From a virus (Duplodnaviria; Caudoviricetes), in IMG/VR virus record IMGVR_UViG_2934377003_000001, positions 1-64,000 of that record: a stretch of DNA of 64,000 nucleotides, one strand, 5' to 3'. The notes beneath the pieces are model-generated. The model was not told the origin of the DNA and did no database searches. It worked only from the letters and a program-made list of their open reading frames with translations. The position numbers were made by a program, and so were the translations under genes. Positions 56,987 to 61,776 of the stretch are shown piece after piece; position 1 is the first letter of the stretch, and every line of letters starts with the position of its first letter.

Positions 56987-57151
56987 TCAGGTCGAGGGCG
57001 GTCTGGCCGTCGCAGTGGACGACTGCGGGTTCGGCCACCCGGGCAGGCGCCGGACGGGCCGGGCGGGGTTGAGTCGGCGGGCACAGACCGGTCCGAGGCC
57101 GGTGGGCGACGGGCGGCGTAGGCGCCGGCCGCACGCCGTGCAGCGGGACAT
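56987..57151 (-). CDS. DUF6011-like zinc finger protein
   Basis: CTACGRRL...GLGPVC. Confidence 0.65.
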   Translation of the reverse strand: MSRCTACGRRLRRPSPTGLGPVCARRLNPARPVRRLPGWPNPQSSTATARPPST

Positions 57152-58200
57152 CAGGCGGCCTCCGCGATCTGACCGCTGGACAGCGGCAGCCCGAACGCGG
57201 CGGCGATGACGTGCTCGGCCAGCAGGCAGGGCACGGCGTTGCCGATCTGTTCGAACTGCTTGGTGCGGCTCCCCCGGAACGGGTGATCGGCGGGGAACGA
57301 CTGGAGGATCGCCGCGTCCTGGACGGACAGGCGGATGGTGTCCCGGCGTCCGCCGCGGTAGGCGGGCAGGCTGTCGGCGTCGACGATGCGGGTGCAGTCG
57401 ATCCAGCGTCCGGCGTCGCGTTCGCCGTAGAGGGTGGCGCGGGCACCGGATCCGCCGACGCACGACGGATCGGGCCCGCCGGCTGCTGTGCCGACAGCGA
57501 TGGTGAGCGCCGGCCGGGCAGTCATGCCCCAGCCGATCGCGTCGGCCATGGAAATCCACGGCTCCAGCCCGAAGACTTCCTGTACTTCGGTGACGCCCTT
57601 GCGGTACCGGTGGTGCGTGGGCTGCGGCAGCCGGGCCTCCCCGTCCAGGCTGGCGGCGAGAAGGGCACGCACCCGGGTCTGCGCGACGCCGTACTCCTCG
57701 GCGGACAGTCGGCCGGTCGCCACGCTGTAGCCCTCGGCGCGCAGGAGTTCACCGAGCGCCTCCCACACGGGCAGCACCGTCGGCACCTGCTCCAGGAGGA
57801 TCGTCCGGTACGGGCGGCCGGCGTCCATCGCTTCCAGCGCCCACCGCAGCGGCTCCAGGACCAAGCCGGTCCGCTCGTCGTCGAAGCCGACGAGCGCCTC
57901 CCCGATGTCCTGGCGTGCGGCCAGCCGCCGTGCCAGGCCGAGGACGGTGTCCAGGGCGGCCCTGCCGCGGCCCTTGCCGCCAACGGAGAACGGCTGGCAC
58001 GGCGGGGAGCCGATCATGTCGGTGGCGTCGGGGAAGTCTGCGGGCCCGTAGGCGCGGACGTCGCCCTCCACCGTGCGGAGCCCAGCGGCGCGGCGGGTCT
58101 CGCATGCGGCGTGATCGCGTTCGATGCCGGTCACGTCGAGACCGAGACGGGTGGCTCCCACGTCCCAGCCACCGGGACCGGCGAACAAGTCGACGATCAT
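57151..58200 (-). CDS. DNA cytosine-C5 methyltransferase
   Basis: DLFAGPGG, GSPPCQPFS, LEQV, QTRVR, LQSFP, QIGNAV. Confidence 0.92.
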   Translation of the reverse strand: MIVDLFAGPGGWDVGATRLGLDVTGIERDHAACETRRAAGLRTVEGDVRAYGPADFPDATDMIGSPPCQPFSVGGKGRGRAALDTVLGLARRLAARQDIGEALVGFDDERTGLVLEPLRWALEAMDAGRPYRTILLEQVPTVLPVWEALGELLRAEGYSVATGRLSAEEYGVAQTRVRALLAASLDGEARLPQPTHHRYRKGVTEVQEVFGLEPWISMADAIGWGMTARPALTIAVGTAAGGPDPSCVGGSGARATLYGERDAGRWIDCTRIVDADSLPAYRGGRRDTIRLSVQDAAILQSFPADHPFRGSRTKQFEQIGNAVPCLLAEHVIAAAFGLPLSSGQIAEAA

Positions 58201-60002
58201 GCGGCCTCCTCCGTGGTGTCGTCGCCGGCGCGGGTGTGGAGGTCCCGCAGCGCGTAGGCGGCCTGCTGCCGGACGACCCCGTTGCCGAGGGCACGGAGCA
58301 TGGCGGGCCGTGTGAGGCCGGGCGTGTCGGTGACCCAGCCGTCGGGCAGGCCCATCAGCCATTCGGTGAAGACGGGGCTCAGACGTCCCAGAGCGTCGGT
58401 TGGCCAAGGGGCTCGTCGTCCGAGGACTCGCTCCCAGCGGCGGATGGCGGGTCCGTAGTCGCCCCAGTCGAGGTCGGGTTCGCCTTCTCGGAGGTCGAGA
58501 ACTGTTCGACGATCCGCCTGCTGCTGGGCGGCAGATCCTCGTTCGCCGGCAGGTTGTCGGGGCGTTCCCCTGTCGCCAGCTTTGCGATCTCCGTCAGGCC
58601 GAGGGAGCTGGACTGTCCTCCGCCCGTCCGCCGGCCGTTCCCCGTGGACGAGGTGAGGGCCCTGGTGCTCTTCTCCGTCGCGCTGGCTGTCGGTGTCGGC
58701 AGCAGCTTCGGCGGCGCAGACGGGGCAGTCATCGGGGCAGAATCCGGGCTGTCCGAGTTCGGGGTCGGTGCAGTGAAGGCATCCGTTGCATAGCCCGTCG
58801 GGGGCGTGCTCGGACTTGAGGCAGAGGCAGGTGGGGCAGGTGGTTTCGGCAGGAGCTGCGCTGCCGCGCTCGGCAGCATCAGGTCGCCCTTGCTGCCGCG
58901 CTGGTTCGGTCCGCCCTTCGTTCCGTCCGTGGCTCTGGGGGTCGGCAGCAGCTTCACGGTTATCGCCAGCGGCGTGCCCTGCCCGTTCCCGTTGATCCCC
59001 TTCTCCAGGTTGCGCTGCCGCCTGGCTTCCCAGGACTCCAGCGACTCCCCGTCGTTCGGGTTCGACGCTGCTGGCGTCGGCAGCAGCTTCACCTGGCCGT
59101 CCGAGTTCGGGGTCGGTGCAGCCGTGGCATCCTGCGCAGAATCCTCCGGCGTCGTGCATCCACTCGCCGCATCCGCAGGTCGGGCAGACGGGCTCGTCGG
59201 CGACGGCAGGCAGTTCACGACGACCTCGTTCAGCGGCCGGGAGTTCCGGTCCATCAGGTTCGACTCGCCCGACTTCCAGTCCGGGGCGGCCGGGGTCGGC
59301 AGCATCCGCGCCACCGATTCCAGCATCGGCGAGCGCCGAGCCCGCTCCGATGGGCAGTCGCCGCGGTCCATGTCCGAAGCCTTCGGTGTCGGAAGCAGCC
59401 GGCCAGGCGCGGATGATGATGCGGCGGCGGCGGTGGGGGGCGCCGACTTCGTCCGCGCCGTAGCGGCCCCATTCCGCATCGAACCCGAGGCTGGCCAGGT
59501 CCCCAAGAACGGCTCCGCATGCCCGCAGTACAGGCTCAGCGTGTCCGTCTCCCACGCAGTACGGGCAGGGTTCCATGTCGCTGGCAGCCGGCGCCGAGAG
59601 GAGCCCTTCGACATTTTCGATCACCACGAGTTTCGGTTGGAGGATGGAGATGGCGTGGGCCATGTGGTTCCACAGCCCGGAGCGGGTTTCGGGGGTAAGG
59701 CCAGCGCGGCGGCCAGCCGAAGAGACGTCGGTGCAGGGGAAGCCGCCGGTGAGGATGTCGACCGGCCCGTGCTCGTCGAGGACGCCCTGCCAGTCGATCT
59801 TTGTGATGTCGCCGAGGTTCGGGACGTTGGGCCAGTGCCGGGCGAGGATCTTCGCCGCGTACTGGTTCTTGTCTTCCTTGCCGTTCTTGTCCGGCGGCTC
59901 GTACTGCGAGTGCCAAACGACCTCGGCGTCGTACACGTCCATCACGGCCAGGTCCAGGGCCCCGGTGCCGGTGAACAGGGAGCCGATACGCAGCGGGCTC
60001 AT
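58197..60002 (-). CDS. DNA cytosine-C5 methyltransferase with a very long variable region
   Basis: SLFTGTG, GGFPCTDVS, IENV, PHRRRR, RLSPVFTEWLMGLP, LGNGV. Confidence 0.9.
   Translation of the reverse strand: MSPLRIGSLFTGTGALDLAVMDVYDAEVVWHSQYEPPDKNGKEDKNQYAAKILARHWPNVPNLGDITKIDWQGVLDEHGPVDILTGGFPCTDVSSAGRRAGLTPETRSGLWNHMAHAISILQPKLVVIENVEGLLSAPAASDMEPCPYCVGDGHAEPVLRACGAVLGDLASLGFDAEWGRYGADEVGAPHRRRRIIIRAWPAASDTEGFGHGPRRLPIGAGSALADAGIGGADAADPGRPGLEVGRVEPDGPELPAAERGRRELPAVADEPVCPTCGCGEWMHDAGGFCAGCHGCTDPELGRPGEAAADASSVEPERRGVAGVLGSQAAAQPGEGDQRERAGHAAGDNREAAADPQSHGRNEGRTEPARQQGRPDAAERGSAAPAETTCPTCLCLKSEHAPDGLCNGCLHCTDPELGQPGFCPDDCPVCAAEAAADTDSQRDGEEHQGPHLVHGERPADGRRTVQLPRPDGDRKAGDRGTPRQPAGERGSAAQQQADRRTVLDLREGEPDLDWGDYGPAIRRWERVLGRRAPWPTDALGRLSPVFTEWLMGLPDGWVTDTPGLTRPAMLRALGNGVVRQQAAYALRDLHTRAGDDTTEEAA
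58379..59614 (-). CDS. Overlapping same-strand alternate-frame protein with LLPTP repeats inside the methyltransferase gene
   Basis: 411 codons open; ATG created by an AAT codon in ENV with GGTGAT 5 nt upstream; five LPTP units plus degenerate copies. Confidence 0.6.
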   Translation of the reverse strand: MSKGSSRRRLPATWNPARTAWETDTLSLYCGHAEPFLGTWPASGSMRNGAATARTKSAPPTAAAASSSAPGRLLPTPKASDMDRGDCPSERARRSPMLESVARMLPTPAAPDWKSGESNLMDRNSRPLNEVVVNCLPSPTSPSARPADAASGCTTPEDSAQDATAAPTPNSDGQVKLLPTPAASNPNDGESLESWEARRQRNLEKGINGNGQGTPLAITVKLLPTPRATDGTKGGPNQRGSKGDLMLPSAAAQLLPKPPAPPASASSPSTPPTGYATDAFTAPTPNSDSPDSAPMTAPSAPPKLLPTPTASATEKSTRALTSSTGNGRRTGGGQSSSLGLTEIAKLATGERPDNLPANEDLPPSSRRIVEQFSTSEKANPTSTGATTDPPSAAGSESSDDEPLGQPTLWDV

Positions 60003-60313
60003 GCGGCGATTCCTTCCTGCGGCTGGTGGGTCGTGGTGCTGTTGGGGTTGCCGCCGCAGCGGGCGCAGGTGCAGGCGTCCGGCGGCGGCGTCGGGCCCGA
60101 GGCGGCGGTGCCGTCGATGACCCGGAGCAGGGGCCGTCGCGGGCCGCGGGTTTCGAAGCCGACGAGTGCGGCTTCGAGTTCGGCGCGGTGCGCGGCCTGC
60201 TCCTCCGGGGTCCAGGAGGGCCGCGAAGGGGCCTCTCGCGGCCTTTCGGGGCGTGAGTGCCCGAACGTGCCCGTTGGGACGGCTTCGGCCATCAGGCGCT
60301 CGTAGGCGTTCAT
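59999..60313 (-). CDS. Hypothetical protein
   Basis: ATGA overlaps at both ends. Confidence 0.6.
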   Translation of the reverse strand: MNAYERLMAEAVPTGTFGHSRPERPREAPSRPSWTPEEQAAHRAELEAALVGFETRGPRRPLLRVIDGTAASGPTPPPDACTCARCGGNPNSTTTHQPQEGIAA

Positions 60314-60618
60314 GCGGCGGTCGCCTCGGCTTCCTGGTAGCGGCGGGCGTGGACGGTGCGGCGGGCGCGGCCGTCCTCGTGGCACGGGGTGGCCAGACCA
60401 ACCTGGCACTGCGGGCAGCAGGCTGTGGCCTGAGCCCAGTCCGACACCCGCTGCGGGTGCGGCTGGCTGAGGACTGTGTTCCGGGTGCGGACCCGGCACG
60501 GCCGATGCGCGGCAGCCCCGCAGTGCGGGCAGGCGACGGACCGCGCCGGGTGCTGTTTCGCGCGGAGCACGTGCCGCAGGGACTCCGGCATCTGGGCGGC
60601 AGGCTGGCGAGTGGTCAT
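60310..60618 (-). CDS. Tandem zinc-finger protein
   Basis: CPHC.A....PC...H..R twice. Confidence 0.75.
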   Translation of the reverse strand: MTTRQPAAQMPESLRHVLRAKQHPARSVACPHCGAAAHRPCRVRTRNTVLSQPHPQRVSDWAQATACCPQCQVGLATPCHEDGRARRTVHARRYQEAEATAA

Positions 60619-60827: not shown

Positions 60828-61162
60828 TGGTTCTCCTCTGGCGGGCAGTTGCCGCAGTCGCAGGGCTGGTCGGGGAAGTGCTCGGTGTTGCGGTAGTGGC
60901 GGACCGCCGCATCCCAGGCGGCCTTCGGCAGGTCCCACTCCGGCGGCCGGCCGGGTGGCGAGCTGCCGGTGGGCCAGGCGCCCGGACGGTGACCCGGCGG
61001 GCTCGGGGCCGCCGCCGGCTTGGCAGGTTCGGTGCGGCGTGCGCGGCCGATGTCGATCTGCGCCCGCATCAGCGCCCGAAGCTCAGCCCGGCCGCCGGCA
61101 CGGACCGCCCGCATGTCCTCAACCTGGATGCCGTCGTCGTCCGGGATCTGCGCGTCACTCAC
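60824..61162 (-). CDS. Hypothetical protein
   Basis: GTGA overlap. Confidence 0.6.
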   Translation of the reverse strand: MSDAQIPDDDGIQVEDMRAVRAGGRAELRALMRAQIDIGRARRTEPAKPAAAPSPPGHRPGAWPTGSSPPGRPPEWDLPKAAWDAAVRHYRNTEHFPDQPCDCGNCPPEENQ

Positions 61163-61776
61163 GACGCCTCCTCGACGCCGGGACCTTCGTCCGTCTGGCT
61201 GCCGAGGATGCGGGCCGAGGCCGCCTTGCGGCGTTCAATCTCGGCCTGCTCGTCACGGCCAGACCGTGCCGAGTGGGGAGCGCGTTCCCGACCGCTGTCC
61301 ATCCGGCAGGGCCTGCCTATCGGTGCTCCGCACGCGGGGCACTCGATGCCCAGCGGGCCCGGACGTCTTACGACGGCCACCTCGTCCGGGATCTCCCGGC
61401 CGACGCCGGCCAGGAGCTCAGCGACAGGACGGCGCTTCATCACCTGACCGTCCGCTGCACGAGTGCGCTGACCACGGAGGGCCGCCAGGTAGGCCTGGAC
61501 GTCGTCCGGGTCGGCGTCCGGCACCTCGGCGGGCAGGCCAGGCCCCTGAATGTCGGAGGCGCGGTCGTCCCGGGTGCGTCGGATCTCCGCAATGATCTCG
61601 GCGGGGCTGACGAACGGCTGCTTGCGGGCTACGGCGGCGGCGGCGGCACGGGCATCGGCGAGGGCGAAGTCGGCGAGGACGTCGTGCCAGGCATCCGGGG
61701 TGTACTCGTCGAACTTCTGCTGGGGGCAGAGGGCTCGCACGTAGCGGGCGAGCACTACAGCTTCGTCGGGGGTCAC
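61159..61776 (-). CDS. Helicase loader/inhibitor-like protein with zinc finger
   Basis: TPDAWHDVL...FVSPAEI and CPAC.A..G.PC; follows the replication initiator. Confidence 0.6.
   Translation of the reverse strand: MTPDEAVVLARYVRALCPQQKFDEYTPDAWHDVLADFALADARAAAAAVARKQPFVSPAEIIAEIRRTRDDRASDIQGPGLPAEVPDADPDDVQAYLAALRGQRTRAADGQVMKRRPVAELLAGVGREIPDEVAVVRRPGPLGIECPACGAPIGRPCRMDSGRERAPHSARSGRDEQAEIERRKAASARILGSQTDEGPGVEEAS

Follow-up and report, generated by a model that had tools for sequence, protein, structure and literature searches.

DNA cytosine-5 (C5) methyltransferases encoded in two chains or in two frames have been described before, and the closest precedent is M.EcoHK31I of E. coli (target YGGCCR). 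Its second (beta) chain is needed for activity and is encoded in another frame of the gene for the catalytic (alpha) chain (PMC2836561, PMC3404938). We analysed a methylase gene at 58197..60002 on the minus strand of a 64,000-nucleotide stretch of viral DNA (Duplodnaviria; Caudoviricetes), positions 1 to 64,000 of IMG/VR record IMGVR_UViG_2934377003_000001; this whole stretch is called the window. Within the long open reading frame (ORF) of this gene, frame A, a second ORF, frame B, shifted by +1, lies wholly nested; M.EcoHK31I shows the same kind of nesting. A first-pass annotation of this DNA had named M.EcoHK31I as the precedent, and the published account agrees (PMC2836561). The beta chain of M.EcoHK31I, however, is small and supplies motif IX, and its alpha chain keeps the recognition domain. 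In the window, motif IX stays in frame A, the nested frame of 411 codons would comprise the whole recognition region, the middle of A is reduced to a linker, and Cys modules coded in A alternate with cassettes coded in B. A methylase chain nested in another frame is thus already known from M.EcoHK31I; new here would be that the nested chain is the entire recognition region and that the meaningful reading alternates from one frame to the other along the gene.

M.AquI (CYCGRG) is likewise a two-chain enzyme, and separate fragments of monomeric C5 methylases can complement one another. Its split falls in the variable region and separates a chain with motifs I-VIII from a recognition chain (PMC3404938). 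The methylase of Arthrobacter phage PrincessTrina is divided alike and, as in M.AquI, has motifs IX-X on the second chain, whereas B of the window stops before motif IX. The two genes of the window overlap by ~1.2 kb rather than meeting end to end as in M.AquI. The methylases of Bacillus phages SPR, phi3T and H2 carry several tandem recognition domains between motifs VIII and IX (PMC8936443), but on a single polypeptide in one frame; in the window the array lies on a separate +1 chain, and it may be multispecific by analogy. Finally, the ShiLan domain and other hidden HNH insertions occur in actinophage methylases of the same broad family, where the host frame reads through an insertion that is meaningful in another frame (PMC11855218). 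Those insertions are selfish nucleases, while the other frame of the window encodes part of the methylase. No nuclease was recognized in B, which had no Pfam match at E<=1 and whose only PHROG match was a DNA methyltransferase family. Term searches within papers on out-of-frame nucleases in this methylase family, including PMC11855218, gave no mention of a recognition chain in a second frame, and among the openly available papers that our literature searches listed, none described a two-frame methylase layout in actinophages.

Organization of the locus

We consider it likely that the locus encodes one DNA cytosine-5 methyltransferase of two polypeptides specified by the same DNA, read one base apart. 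Frame A would be translated from 60002 through to 58197 and form the catalytic body, with motifs I-VIII at its N-terminal end and motifs IX-X at its C-terminal end. The two ends would be joined by a disordered linker of ~300 residues that is simply the other reading of the DNA coding for B, except for two short, genuinely A-coded Cys/His modules that probably bind zinc. Frame B would start independently at the ATG at 59614, made from the codons for ENV in A behind GGTGATC, and would contribute the part that single-chain relatives carry between motifs VIII and IX. Its conserved N-segment is expected to dock on the catalytic body, its five LLPTP-headed cassettes most likely read the target DNA and may recognize more than one sequence, like the tandem domains of the Bacillus phage methylases, and it ends in a short acidic/aromatic tail. 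Structured pieces of each chain would overlie linkers of the other. We infer that the two chains are both produced and associate with one another; specificity would be set by the cassettes, and the enzyme would presumably protect phage DNA from host restriction.

The window, part of a Streptomyces prophage, derives from a 77.7-kb provirus record, with ~70% G+C around the two-frame gene. Dual-coded DNA makes up ~1.2 kb of the 1.8-kb gene. The features are as follows.

58197..60401, minus strand: ORF of frame A; likely start MSPLRIG at 60002, giving 58197..60002 (601 aa)
59397..60002, minus strand: A residues 1-202, catalytic N-terminal end, from PF00145, model confidence and Foldseek
59952-59978, minus strand: A motif I (LFTGTGALD)
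59721-59747, minus strand: A motif IV (GGFPCTDVS)
59598-59627, minus strand: A motif VI (VVIENVEGLL)
59412-59447, minus strand: A motif VIII (VGAPHRRRRIII)
58491..59396, minus strand: A linker, residues 203-504, a Gly/Ala/Pro/Arg/Glu/Asp-rich read-through of B-coded DNA
59094..59195, minus strand: A-frame Cys/His module 1 (EPVCPTCGCGEWMHDAGGFCAGCHGCTDPELGRP), from diversity and Cys/His invariance
58707..58847, minus strand: A-frame Cys/His module 2, extended by CPDDCPVC, from diversity in six copies
58197..58475, minus strand: A C-terminal domain (DLDWGDYGPAIRRWE...) and stop codon, from PHROG, model confidence and variation dominated by the third codon position of A
58329-58382, minus strand: A motif IX-like segment (LSPVFTEWLMGLPDGWVT), in frame A
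58260-58289, minus strand: A motif X (LGNGVVRQQA), in frame A
58379..59614, minus strand: ORF of frame B, 411 codons from an ATG, +1 to A, ending QPTLWDV; proposed recognition chain
59612..59625, minus strand: start of B, with GGTGATC (59619-59625), a 4-nt spacer and ATG (59612-59614), from A codons GTG GTG ATC GAA AAT G
59399..59614, minus strand: B N-segment (W-NPAR-WET...EPF..TWPASGSMRNG...), over A motifs VI-VIII, both frames conserved
59306-59398 and 59213-59305, minus strand: B cassettes 1 and 2, with LLPTP or MLPTP at the head; variation dominated by the third codon position of B
58952-59086 and 58856-58951, minus strand: B cassettes 3 (NPNDGESLESWEARRQRNLEKGINGNGQG type) and 4 (RATDGTKGGPNQRGSKGDLMLPS type); variation mostly at the third codon position of B
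58496..58705, minus strand: B cassette 5 (LLPTPTASATEK...RRIVEQFS)
58379..58495, minus strand: B tail (…SSDDEPLGQPTLWDV) with its stop; the same bases encode the beginning of the A C-terminal domain

Every element of this layout that the first-pass annotation had listed was found where it had been placed, with minus as the strand. This holds for frame B, open for 411 codons (58379-59614) up to QPTLWDV, for the origin of its ATG in the GAA AAT of motif VI with GGTGAT(C) upstream, and for an exact 23-bp repeat at 58751-58773 and 59099-59121. The 23-bp repeat is part of a 105-nt repeat pair (58744-58848 and 59092-59196; 70% identity, 348 nt apart). The DNA unit coding for LLPTP occurs in six copies on the minus strand, at spacings of 150, 96, 135, 219 and 93 nt, all multiples of three. 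Two B linkers rich in Pro/Ser/Thr/Ala (59087-59212 and 58706-58855) enclose exactly the two A-frame Cys modules.

Frame A has the features of a methylase catalytic chain. Pfam family PF00145 matched residues 5-200 (E 5e-24), and PHROG families of DNA methyltransferases matched A at both ends, with C-terminal matches at residues 436-592 and 510-588. Motifs I (FxGxG), IV (PC), VI (ENV) and VIII (QxRxR type) are present, as are motifs IX and X at the C-terminal end; these names follow the usual C5 nomenclature. In an AlphaFold model, the predicted local distance difference test (pLDDT) score was mostly >90 at the N-terminal end (1-202) and 87-96 at the C-terminal end, and Foldseek searches with the model matched M.HhaI and M.HaeIII (E ~1e-11). 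The linker was modelled at pLDDT 25-37 and the Cys modules at 50-58. The A chain shows no recognition region between motifs VIII and IX: its stretch there is the low-pLDDT linker, and the homologous region is found in B, whose five LLPTP cassettes overlie the stretches modelled at pLDDT 25-37. Removal of the linker by protein splicing was considered and rejected, as no intein family was matched in A. Relatives of A are annotated as a single 'DNA cytosine methyltransferase'.

Selection in the two frames

Relatives were drawn from seven annotated actinophage genes, 18 viral contigs and 10 genome contigs (seven Streptomyces). Counts out of 22 refer to the Streptomyces-type set, which consists of Streptomyces phage and prophage loci. 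This set excludes L034-L036 (weak short matches, E ~1e-4, in unrelated metagenome-assembled genomes), L013 and L020 (duplicates of L012 and L019), L023 and L025 (cut at contig ends), L026 (another methylase subfamily), L022 and L003-L006 (with the shorter type of B) and L002 (split type). At all 22 loci the N- and C-terminal ends of the methylase lay in one frame, the match to B lay in +1, and A was uninterrupted.

Copies of the modules were retrieved by frame-blind blastn, which replaced retrieval by protein pattern because B-frame patterns bias the sample towards conservation of B. Nucleotide diversity was then calculated for positions 1, 2 and 3 of the A codons (A1/A2/A3), A1 being the third position of B. 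For B cassette 3 it was 0.383/0.128/0.092 (23 copies), for the cassette 4 type 0.383/0.188/0.131 (13 copies) and for the other B cassettes 0.332/0.128/0.081 (10 copies), 0.438/0.094/0.031 (two copies) and 0.493/0.141/0.099 (two copies), in each case with the peak at A1. The Cys modules peaked at A3 (module 1: 0.146/0.201/0.312, nine copies; module 2: 0.139/0.202/0.311, six copies), and so did the N-terminal (0.161/0.174/0.335, 17 copies) and C-terminal (0.157/0.148/0.376, 17 copies) ends of A. Over the overlap with motifs VI-VIII the values were intermediate (0.217/0.152/0.272), as expected if both frames are constrained. Within the A linker outside the Cys modules, the variation pattern gave no sign of A-frame selection. 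The profile of G+C at third positions (GC3) of the window alternates in the same way, with the signal of A at the two gene ends and over the Cys modules and that of B in the stretches between. Together, these patterns of variation show purifying selection in both frames, in alternating stretches.

Avoidance of stop codons had been proposed as a check in the first-pass annotation. We held the B protein fixed and resampled its synonymous codons from the single-coded parts (GC3 0.88). Frame A was free of stops over the B-coded stretch at 19 of 19 non-redundant loci, against 1.3-3.7 stops expected from the simulation; the simulated probability of no stop in A was 0.019-0.27 per locus (median 0.077). 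The lowest value belongs to the window, where A stayed open over 315 codons in 1.9% of trials. The third frame has 10 stops in 600 codons in the window and 6-15 across the genes of the simulated set.

Codon choice in A also bears the mark of B. The frequency of A/T at the third position of A codons was 0.31 in the motif VI-VIII overlap compared with 0.11 upstream and was higher in the overlap at 22 of 22 loci; the single-frame relative L025 had no such rise (0.10 vs 0.22 upstream). At the eight loci inspected by eye, from four host genera, the A codons GTA/GTT (Val), CAA/GAA (Gln/Glu) and AAT (Asn) coincided with Tyr/Phe, Asn and Met of B in every case. A takes rare A/T-ending codons exactly where B needs them.

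These data bear on the explanation that only A is made, B being a relic, a recently frameshifted recognition region or a shadow of A in GC-rich DNA. High G+C does keep alternative frames open, and B would be open over motifs VI-VIII by chance in ~74% of simulations; databases also annotate A alone, and B of the window is not in the protein collection that we searched. Yet variation in the cassettes, in up to 23 copies, is concentrated at the third position of B with little at positions 1 and 2, A pays for B in rare codons, and the cassette DNA, when read in frame A, yields a Gly/Ala/Arg-rich sequence that is modelled with low confidence. The layout moreover recurs in independent assemblies, at all 22 loci, and in phages of four host genera. 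We judge this explanation highly improbable.

Frame B and its counterparts in relatives

A tblastn search with B matched annotated DNA methylase genes in 140 phage records. One PHROG profile, phrog_1008, was shared between the two frames: its positions 72-208 were matched by B residues 10-145 and its positions 173-321 by A residues 436-592. A HMMER search with B returned 3731 proteins at E<=0.001, nine of which were inspected in detail. Among them, P0003, P0022, P0047 and P0118 are stand-alone B-type ORFs that start with the B N-segment and are named, if at all, 'hypothetical protein'. The B-type ORF P0088 has an extra N-terminal extension of ~110 residues before this segment, which looks like part of a homing endonuclease. 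The window's own B was absent from a collection of 15 billion proteins.

In the single-chain proteins P0018, P0105 and P0146, motif VIII is succeeded without a change of frame by an equivalent of the N-segment and by cassettes, and then, still in frame, by WG.Y..AI.RWE and motifs IX-X; in P0146 the homologue of cassette 5 continues in frame into WGDYEPAIRRWE. Given this position in the single-chain relatives and in L025, B corresponds to the region between motifs VIII and IX, which makes the specific DNA contacts in C5 methyltransferases (PMC3404938).

Four layouts were found among the relatives: a clean split into two overlapping ORFs (PrincessTrina); a short B followed by more cassettes in frame A (mycobacterial and Gordonia phages, L022); all cassettes in B (the Streptomyces type); and a single frame throughout (L025; P0018, P0105, P0146). 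The point at which coding returns from B to A varies among lineages. Relatives vary in which of the cassette types they contain and in what order, the shuffling being in whole-codon units. A C5 methylase of another subtype (L026:1300-2500; FAGIGGW, PCQPFS) also has a +1 frame, with, across its motifs VI-VIII, both a 'WKRWPMQSG...WPTP' segment and a NFNDGESIETWEARRQ cassette, so that the two-frame layout may reach beyond the present subfamily.

The existence of single-frame relatives (L025; P0018, P0105, P0146) might suggest that sequencing or assembly indels mimic a frame change in an ordinary gene. However, in an ordinary gene the same bases cannot encode both the B N-segment and motifs VII-VIII, the changes of frame never visit the third frame, and the layout was seen at all 22 loci across isolate genomes, phage genomes and metagenomes. 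Since it recurs in independent records, assembly error can be excluded, and we rate the chance of any such artefact as close to nil.

Because motifs VII-VIII in A and the N-segment in B occupy the same bases, one passage of a ribosome cannot include both, and two products are needed if both matter. A rival explanation is that B is not free-standing: ribosomes reading it would move one base backwards towards the end of the final cassette and go on in frame A, and A itself would matter only as far as motif VIII. The product would be a beta chain (recognition region plus motifs IX-X), and PrincessTrina has exactly such a chain in one frame. In the window, the last cassette and the following REGEPDLDWGDY of A have the same spacing as in the in-frame P0146, and the switch point from B to A differs between lineages. 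Against slippage, a canonical X XXY YYZ site is missing from the last 70 codons of B at 20 of 22 loci; the sites present at the remaining two lack conservation. Nor would one expect, if A counted only to motif VIII, that the Cys modules in the middle of the linker are selected in A and that A is free of stops. With the codon usage under the tail of B (see below), this makes slippage improbable in our view.

Start and tail of frame B

Conservation of the B start had likewise been suggested as a check. The ATG formed from GAR AAT G behind GGTGATC or GTGATC was present at 17 of 22 loci. GGTGATC would pair with the 3' end of 16S rRNA. In the mycobacterial and Gordonia phages and in L024, a GTG of B lies seven bases after AGGGGG or GAGAGGA, sequences made of rare Arg, Gly and Ser codons of A. 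L019:356-1882 and L021:2029-3885 contain an A-frame insertion of ~50 residues between motifs VI and VII with B-frame stops inside, so that B must start further downstream there. The single-chain P0018 has the same insertion with everything in a single frame, pointing to recent changes of layout.

The last ~16 codons of B overprint the conserved start of the A C-terminal domain. Under this tail, the frequency of A/T at the third position of A codons was 0.44 compared with 0.14 downstream (22 loci) and was higher under the tail at 20 of them; just past the stop of B it fell to 1-13%. At four control loci where B ends short of the tail region, the homologous 27 codons had 7-15% A/T. The rise under the tail and the low values in the controls indicate that the tail (SSDDEP.GQ[PL]T[LFI]...) appears to be selected in its own right. 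They also weigh against slippage, as B shapes the codon choice of A right up to its own stop (0.44 vs 0.14, and 0.07-0.15 without overlap).

The first-pass annotation had likened this C-terminus to a sliding-clamp-binding motif. The clamp-binding consensus is Q-L-x-L-F (PMC4549789), to which Q-P-T-L-W-D-V of the window is only a partial fit. Relatives have QLSLD, QLTID, QLTIE or QLMFG, and the Gln occurs in 16 of 22 tails. The tail may also resemble the acidic tail of single-stranded DNA-binding protein (SSB). A wider hypothesis, which we find doubtful, joins a reciprocal two-frame cassette system to a tail that docks to a replication protein and so holds a multispecific methylase at nascent phage DNA. 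Two kinds of cassette would be shuffled through recombination at the repeats that encode LLPTP, those of frame B serving as recognition units and those of frame A as zinc-binding knuckles that gather or anchor the long linker of A. Each cassette would have evolved to read as harmless linker in the other frame, and the tail would be a docking peptide for the host sliding clamp or the site for SSB partners.

Cys/His modules of frame A

The Cys module was present in 29 of 89 candidate proteins, all 29 of which carry PF00145. Those with names are DNA cytosine methyltransferases of Streptomyces, and some of the genes belong to a different catalytic subtype. Five Cys and one His are invariant in all 29 copies; a sixth Cys is always there, its position moving with a two-residue indel. 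Judging by this residue pattern, the modules probably bind zinc. The CPDDCPVC extension of module 2 also occurs in P0176, P0178, P0180 and L027. In the alignment of the retrieved copies, no start codon precedes the module; together with the A-frame selection, this implies translation of frame A straight through the B-coded stretch. Searches of Pfam (E<=10) with module 1 gave only sub-threshold matches to Phage_zn_bind_2 (13.5 bits, cut-off 27) and DUF7567, and with module 2 no match. In the ESM Atlas, module 1 gave scores <=0.89 to clusters without names, and these were not used as evidence.

Other Cys-containing segments were seen in frame A and its relatives. The insertion between motifs VI and VII (A residues ~141-163; window 59560-59600, minus strand), which lies over WNPARTAWET of B, often contains CP.C together with the Cys of LRAC; relatives without CP.C mostly have LRAL. 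CP.C and this Cys may form one more small metal site within the dual-coded DNA. Two phages of Streptomyces, Darolandstone and Raleigh (L001:1410-3104, L007:1910-3469), have an extra Cys/His-rich insertion (CGNCRWGDHDHATC) in the N-terminal catalytic domain of A. In P0179, an A-type methylase with a Cys module, the intein domains PF07591, PF13403 and PF14890 directly follow GGFPC of motif IV.

Discussion

The proposal of a genuine partner chain in frame B that provides target-recognition modules, first made from this sequence alone, gains support from comparison with relatives. It draws on B-frame purifying selection in every cassette tested, on a conserved start with a ribosome-binding-like sequence, on rare codons of A that match the needs of B, and on homology to in-frame segments between motifs VIII and IX, including the PHROG profile covered partly by B and partly by the C-terminal end of A.

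Several observations weigh against two separately made chains. Five of 22 loci do not have the ENV-derived ATG, and no convincing start of B was identified in L019, L021, L031 and L032. Besides having no Pfam match, B had no match to a PDB sequence at E<=1, and folded alone it gave a poor model (mean pLDDT 49.6) that is confident only at residues 11-30 and 190-210. A and B are co-linear with the single-chain relatives save for the one-base shift before WGDY, so that, if translation shifted back into A, a familiar product could likewise result. How two segments that follow one another in the single-chain relatives came to lie on the same DNA is difficult to explain. The per-locus stop probabilities cannot be multiplied because the loci are related, and the openness of B over motifs VI-VIII (simulated P ~0.74) is uninformative alone. 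That each cassette is a recognition domain of its own is something we infer.

The last point leads to an alternative within the two-chain reading: both chains are made, but the cassette array forms one composite domain that recognizes or clamps DNA at a single target. The cassettes are indeed short (31-70 residues), B alone folds poorly, and the number of cassettes varies widely with no known link to specificity. On the other hand, the five LLPTP-headed cassettes of the window are reshuffled among relatives, whose differing subsets and orders of cassette types are as expected of independent units, and the tandem recognition domains of the Bacillus phage enzymes are a precedent (PMC8936443). 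A composite domain is, in our opinion, possible but rather less likely than not.

Long overlaps on the same strand with a conserved, structured protein in both frames are rare outside small viruses. If the methylase does consist of two overlapping chains, the annotation of these actinophage and prophage methylases, a large and common family, as single genes with a meaningless middle third is wrong, and their recognition chains are missing from protein databases. Specificity would reside on a modular chain of its own, recombining by cassettes of whole codons, which would be a simple route to escape many host restriction systems and a natural scaffold for the design of split methylases. It would also mean that a frameshift in a split enzyme is tolerable when GC-rich DNA keeps the neighbouring frame open.

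Neighbouring genes

Two genes upstream of the methylase, at 60310-60618 and 61159-61776 (both minus strand), match Phage_zn_bind_8, a putative DNA-binding phage zinc finger (E values 9e-13 and 1.2e-8, respectively); no link between them and the A-frame Cys modules was found. Downstream, at 57151-58200 (minus strand), the window contains a second C5 methyltransferase gene (PF00145, E 3.7e-26). Its ATG overlaps the stop codon of A (ATGA), with AGGAGG six bases upstream, and the two genes look translationally coupled.

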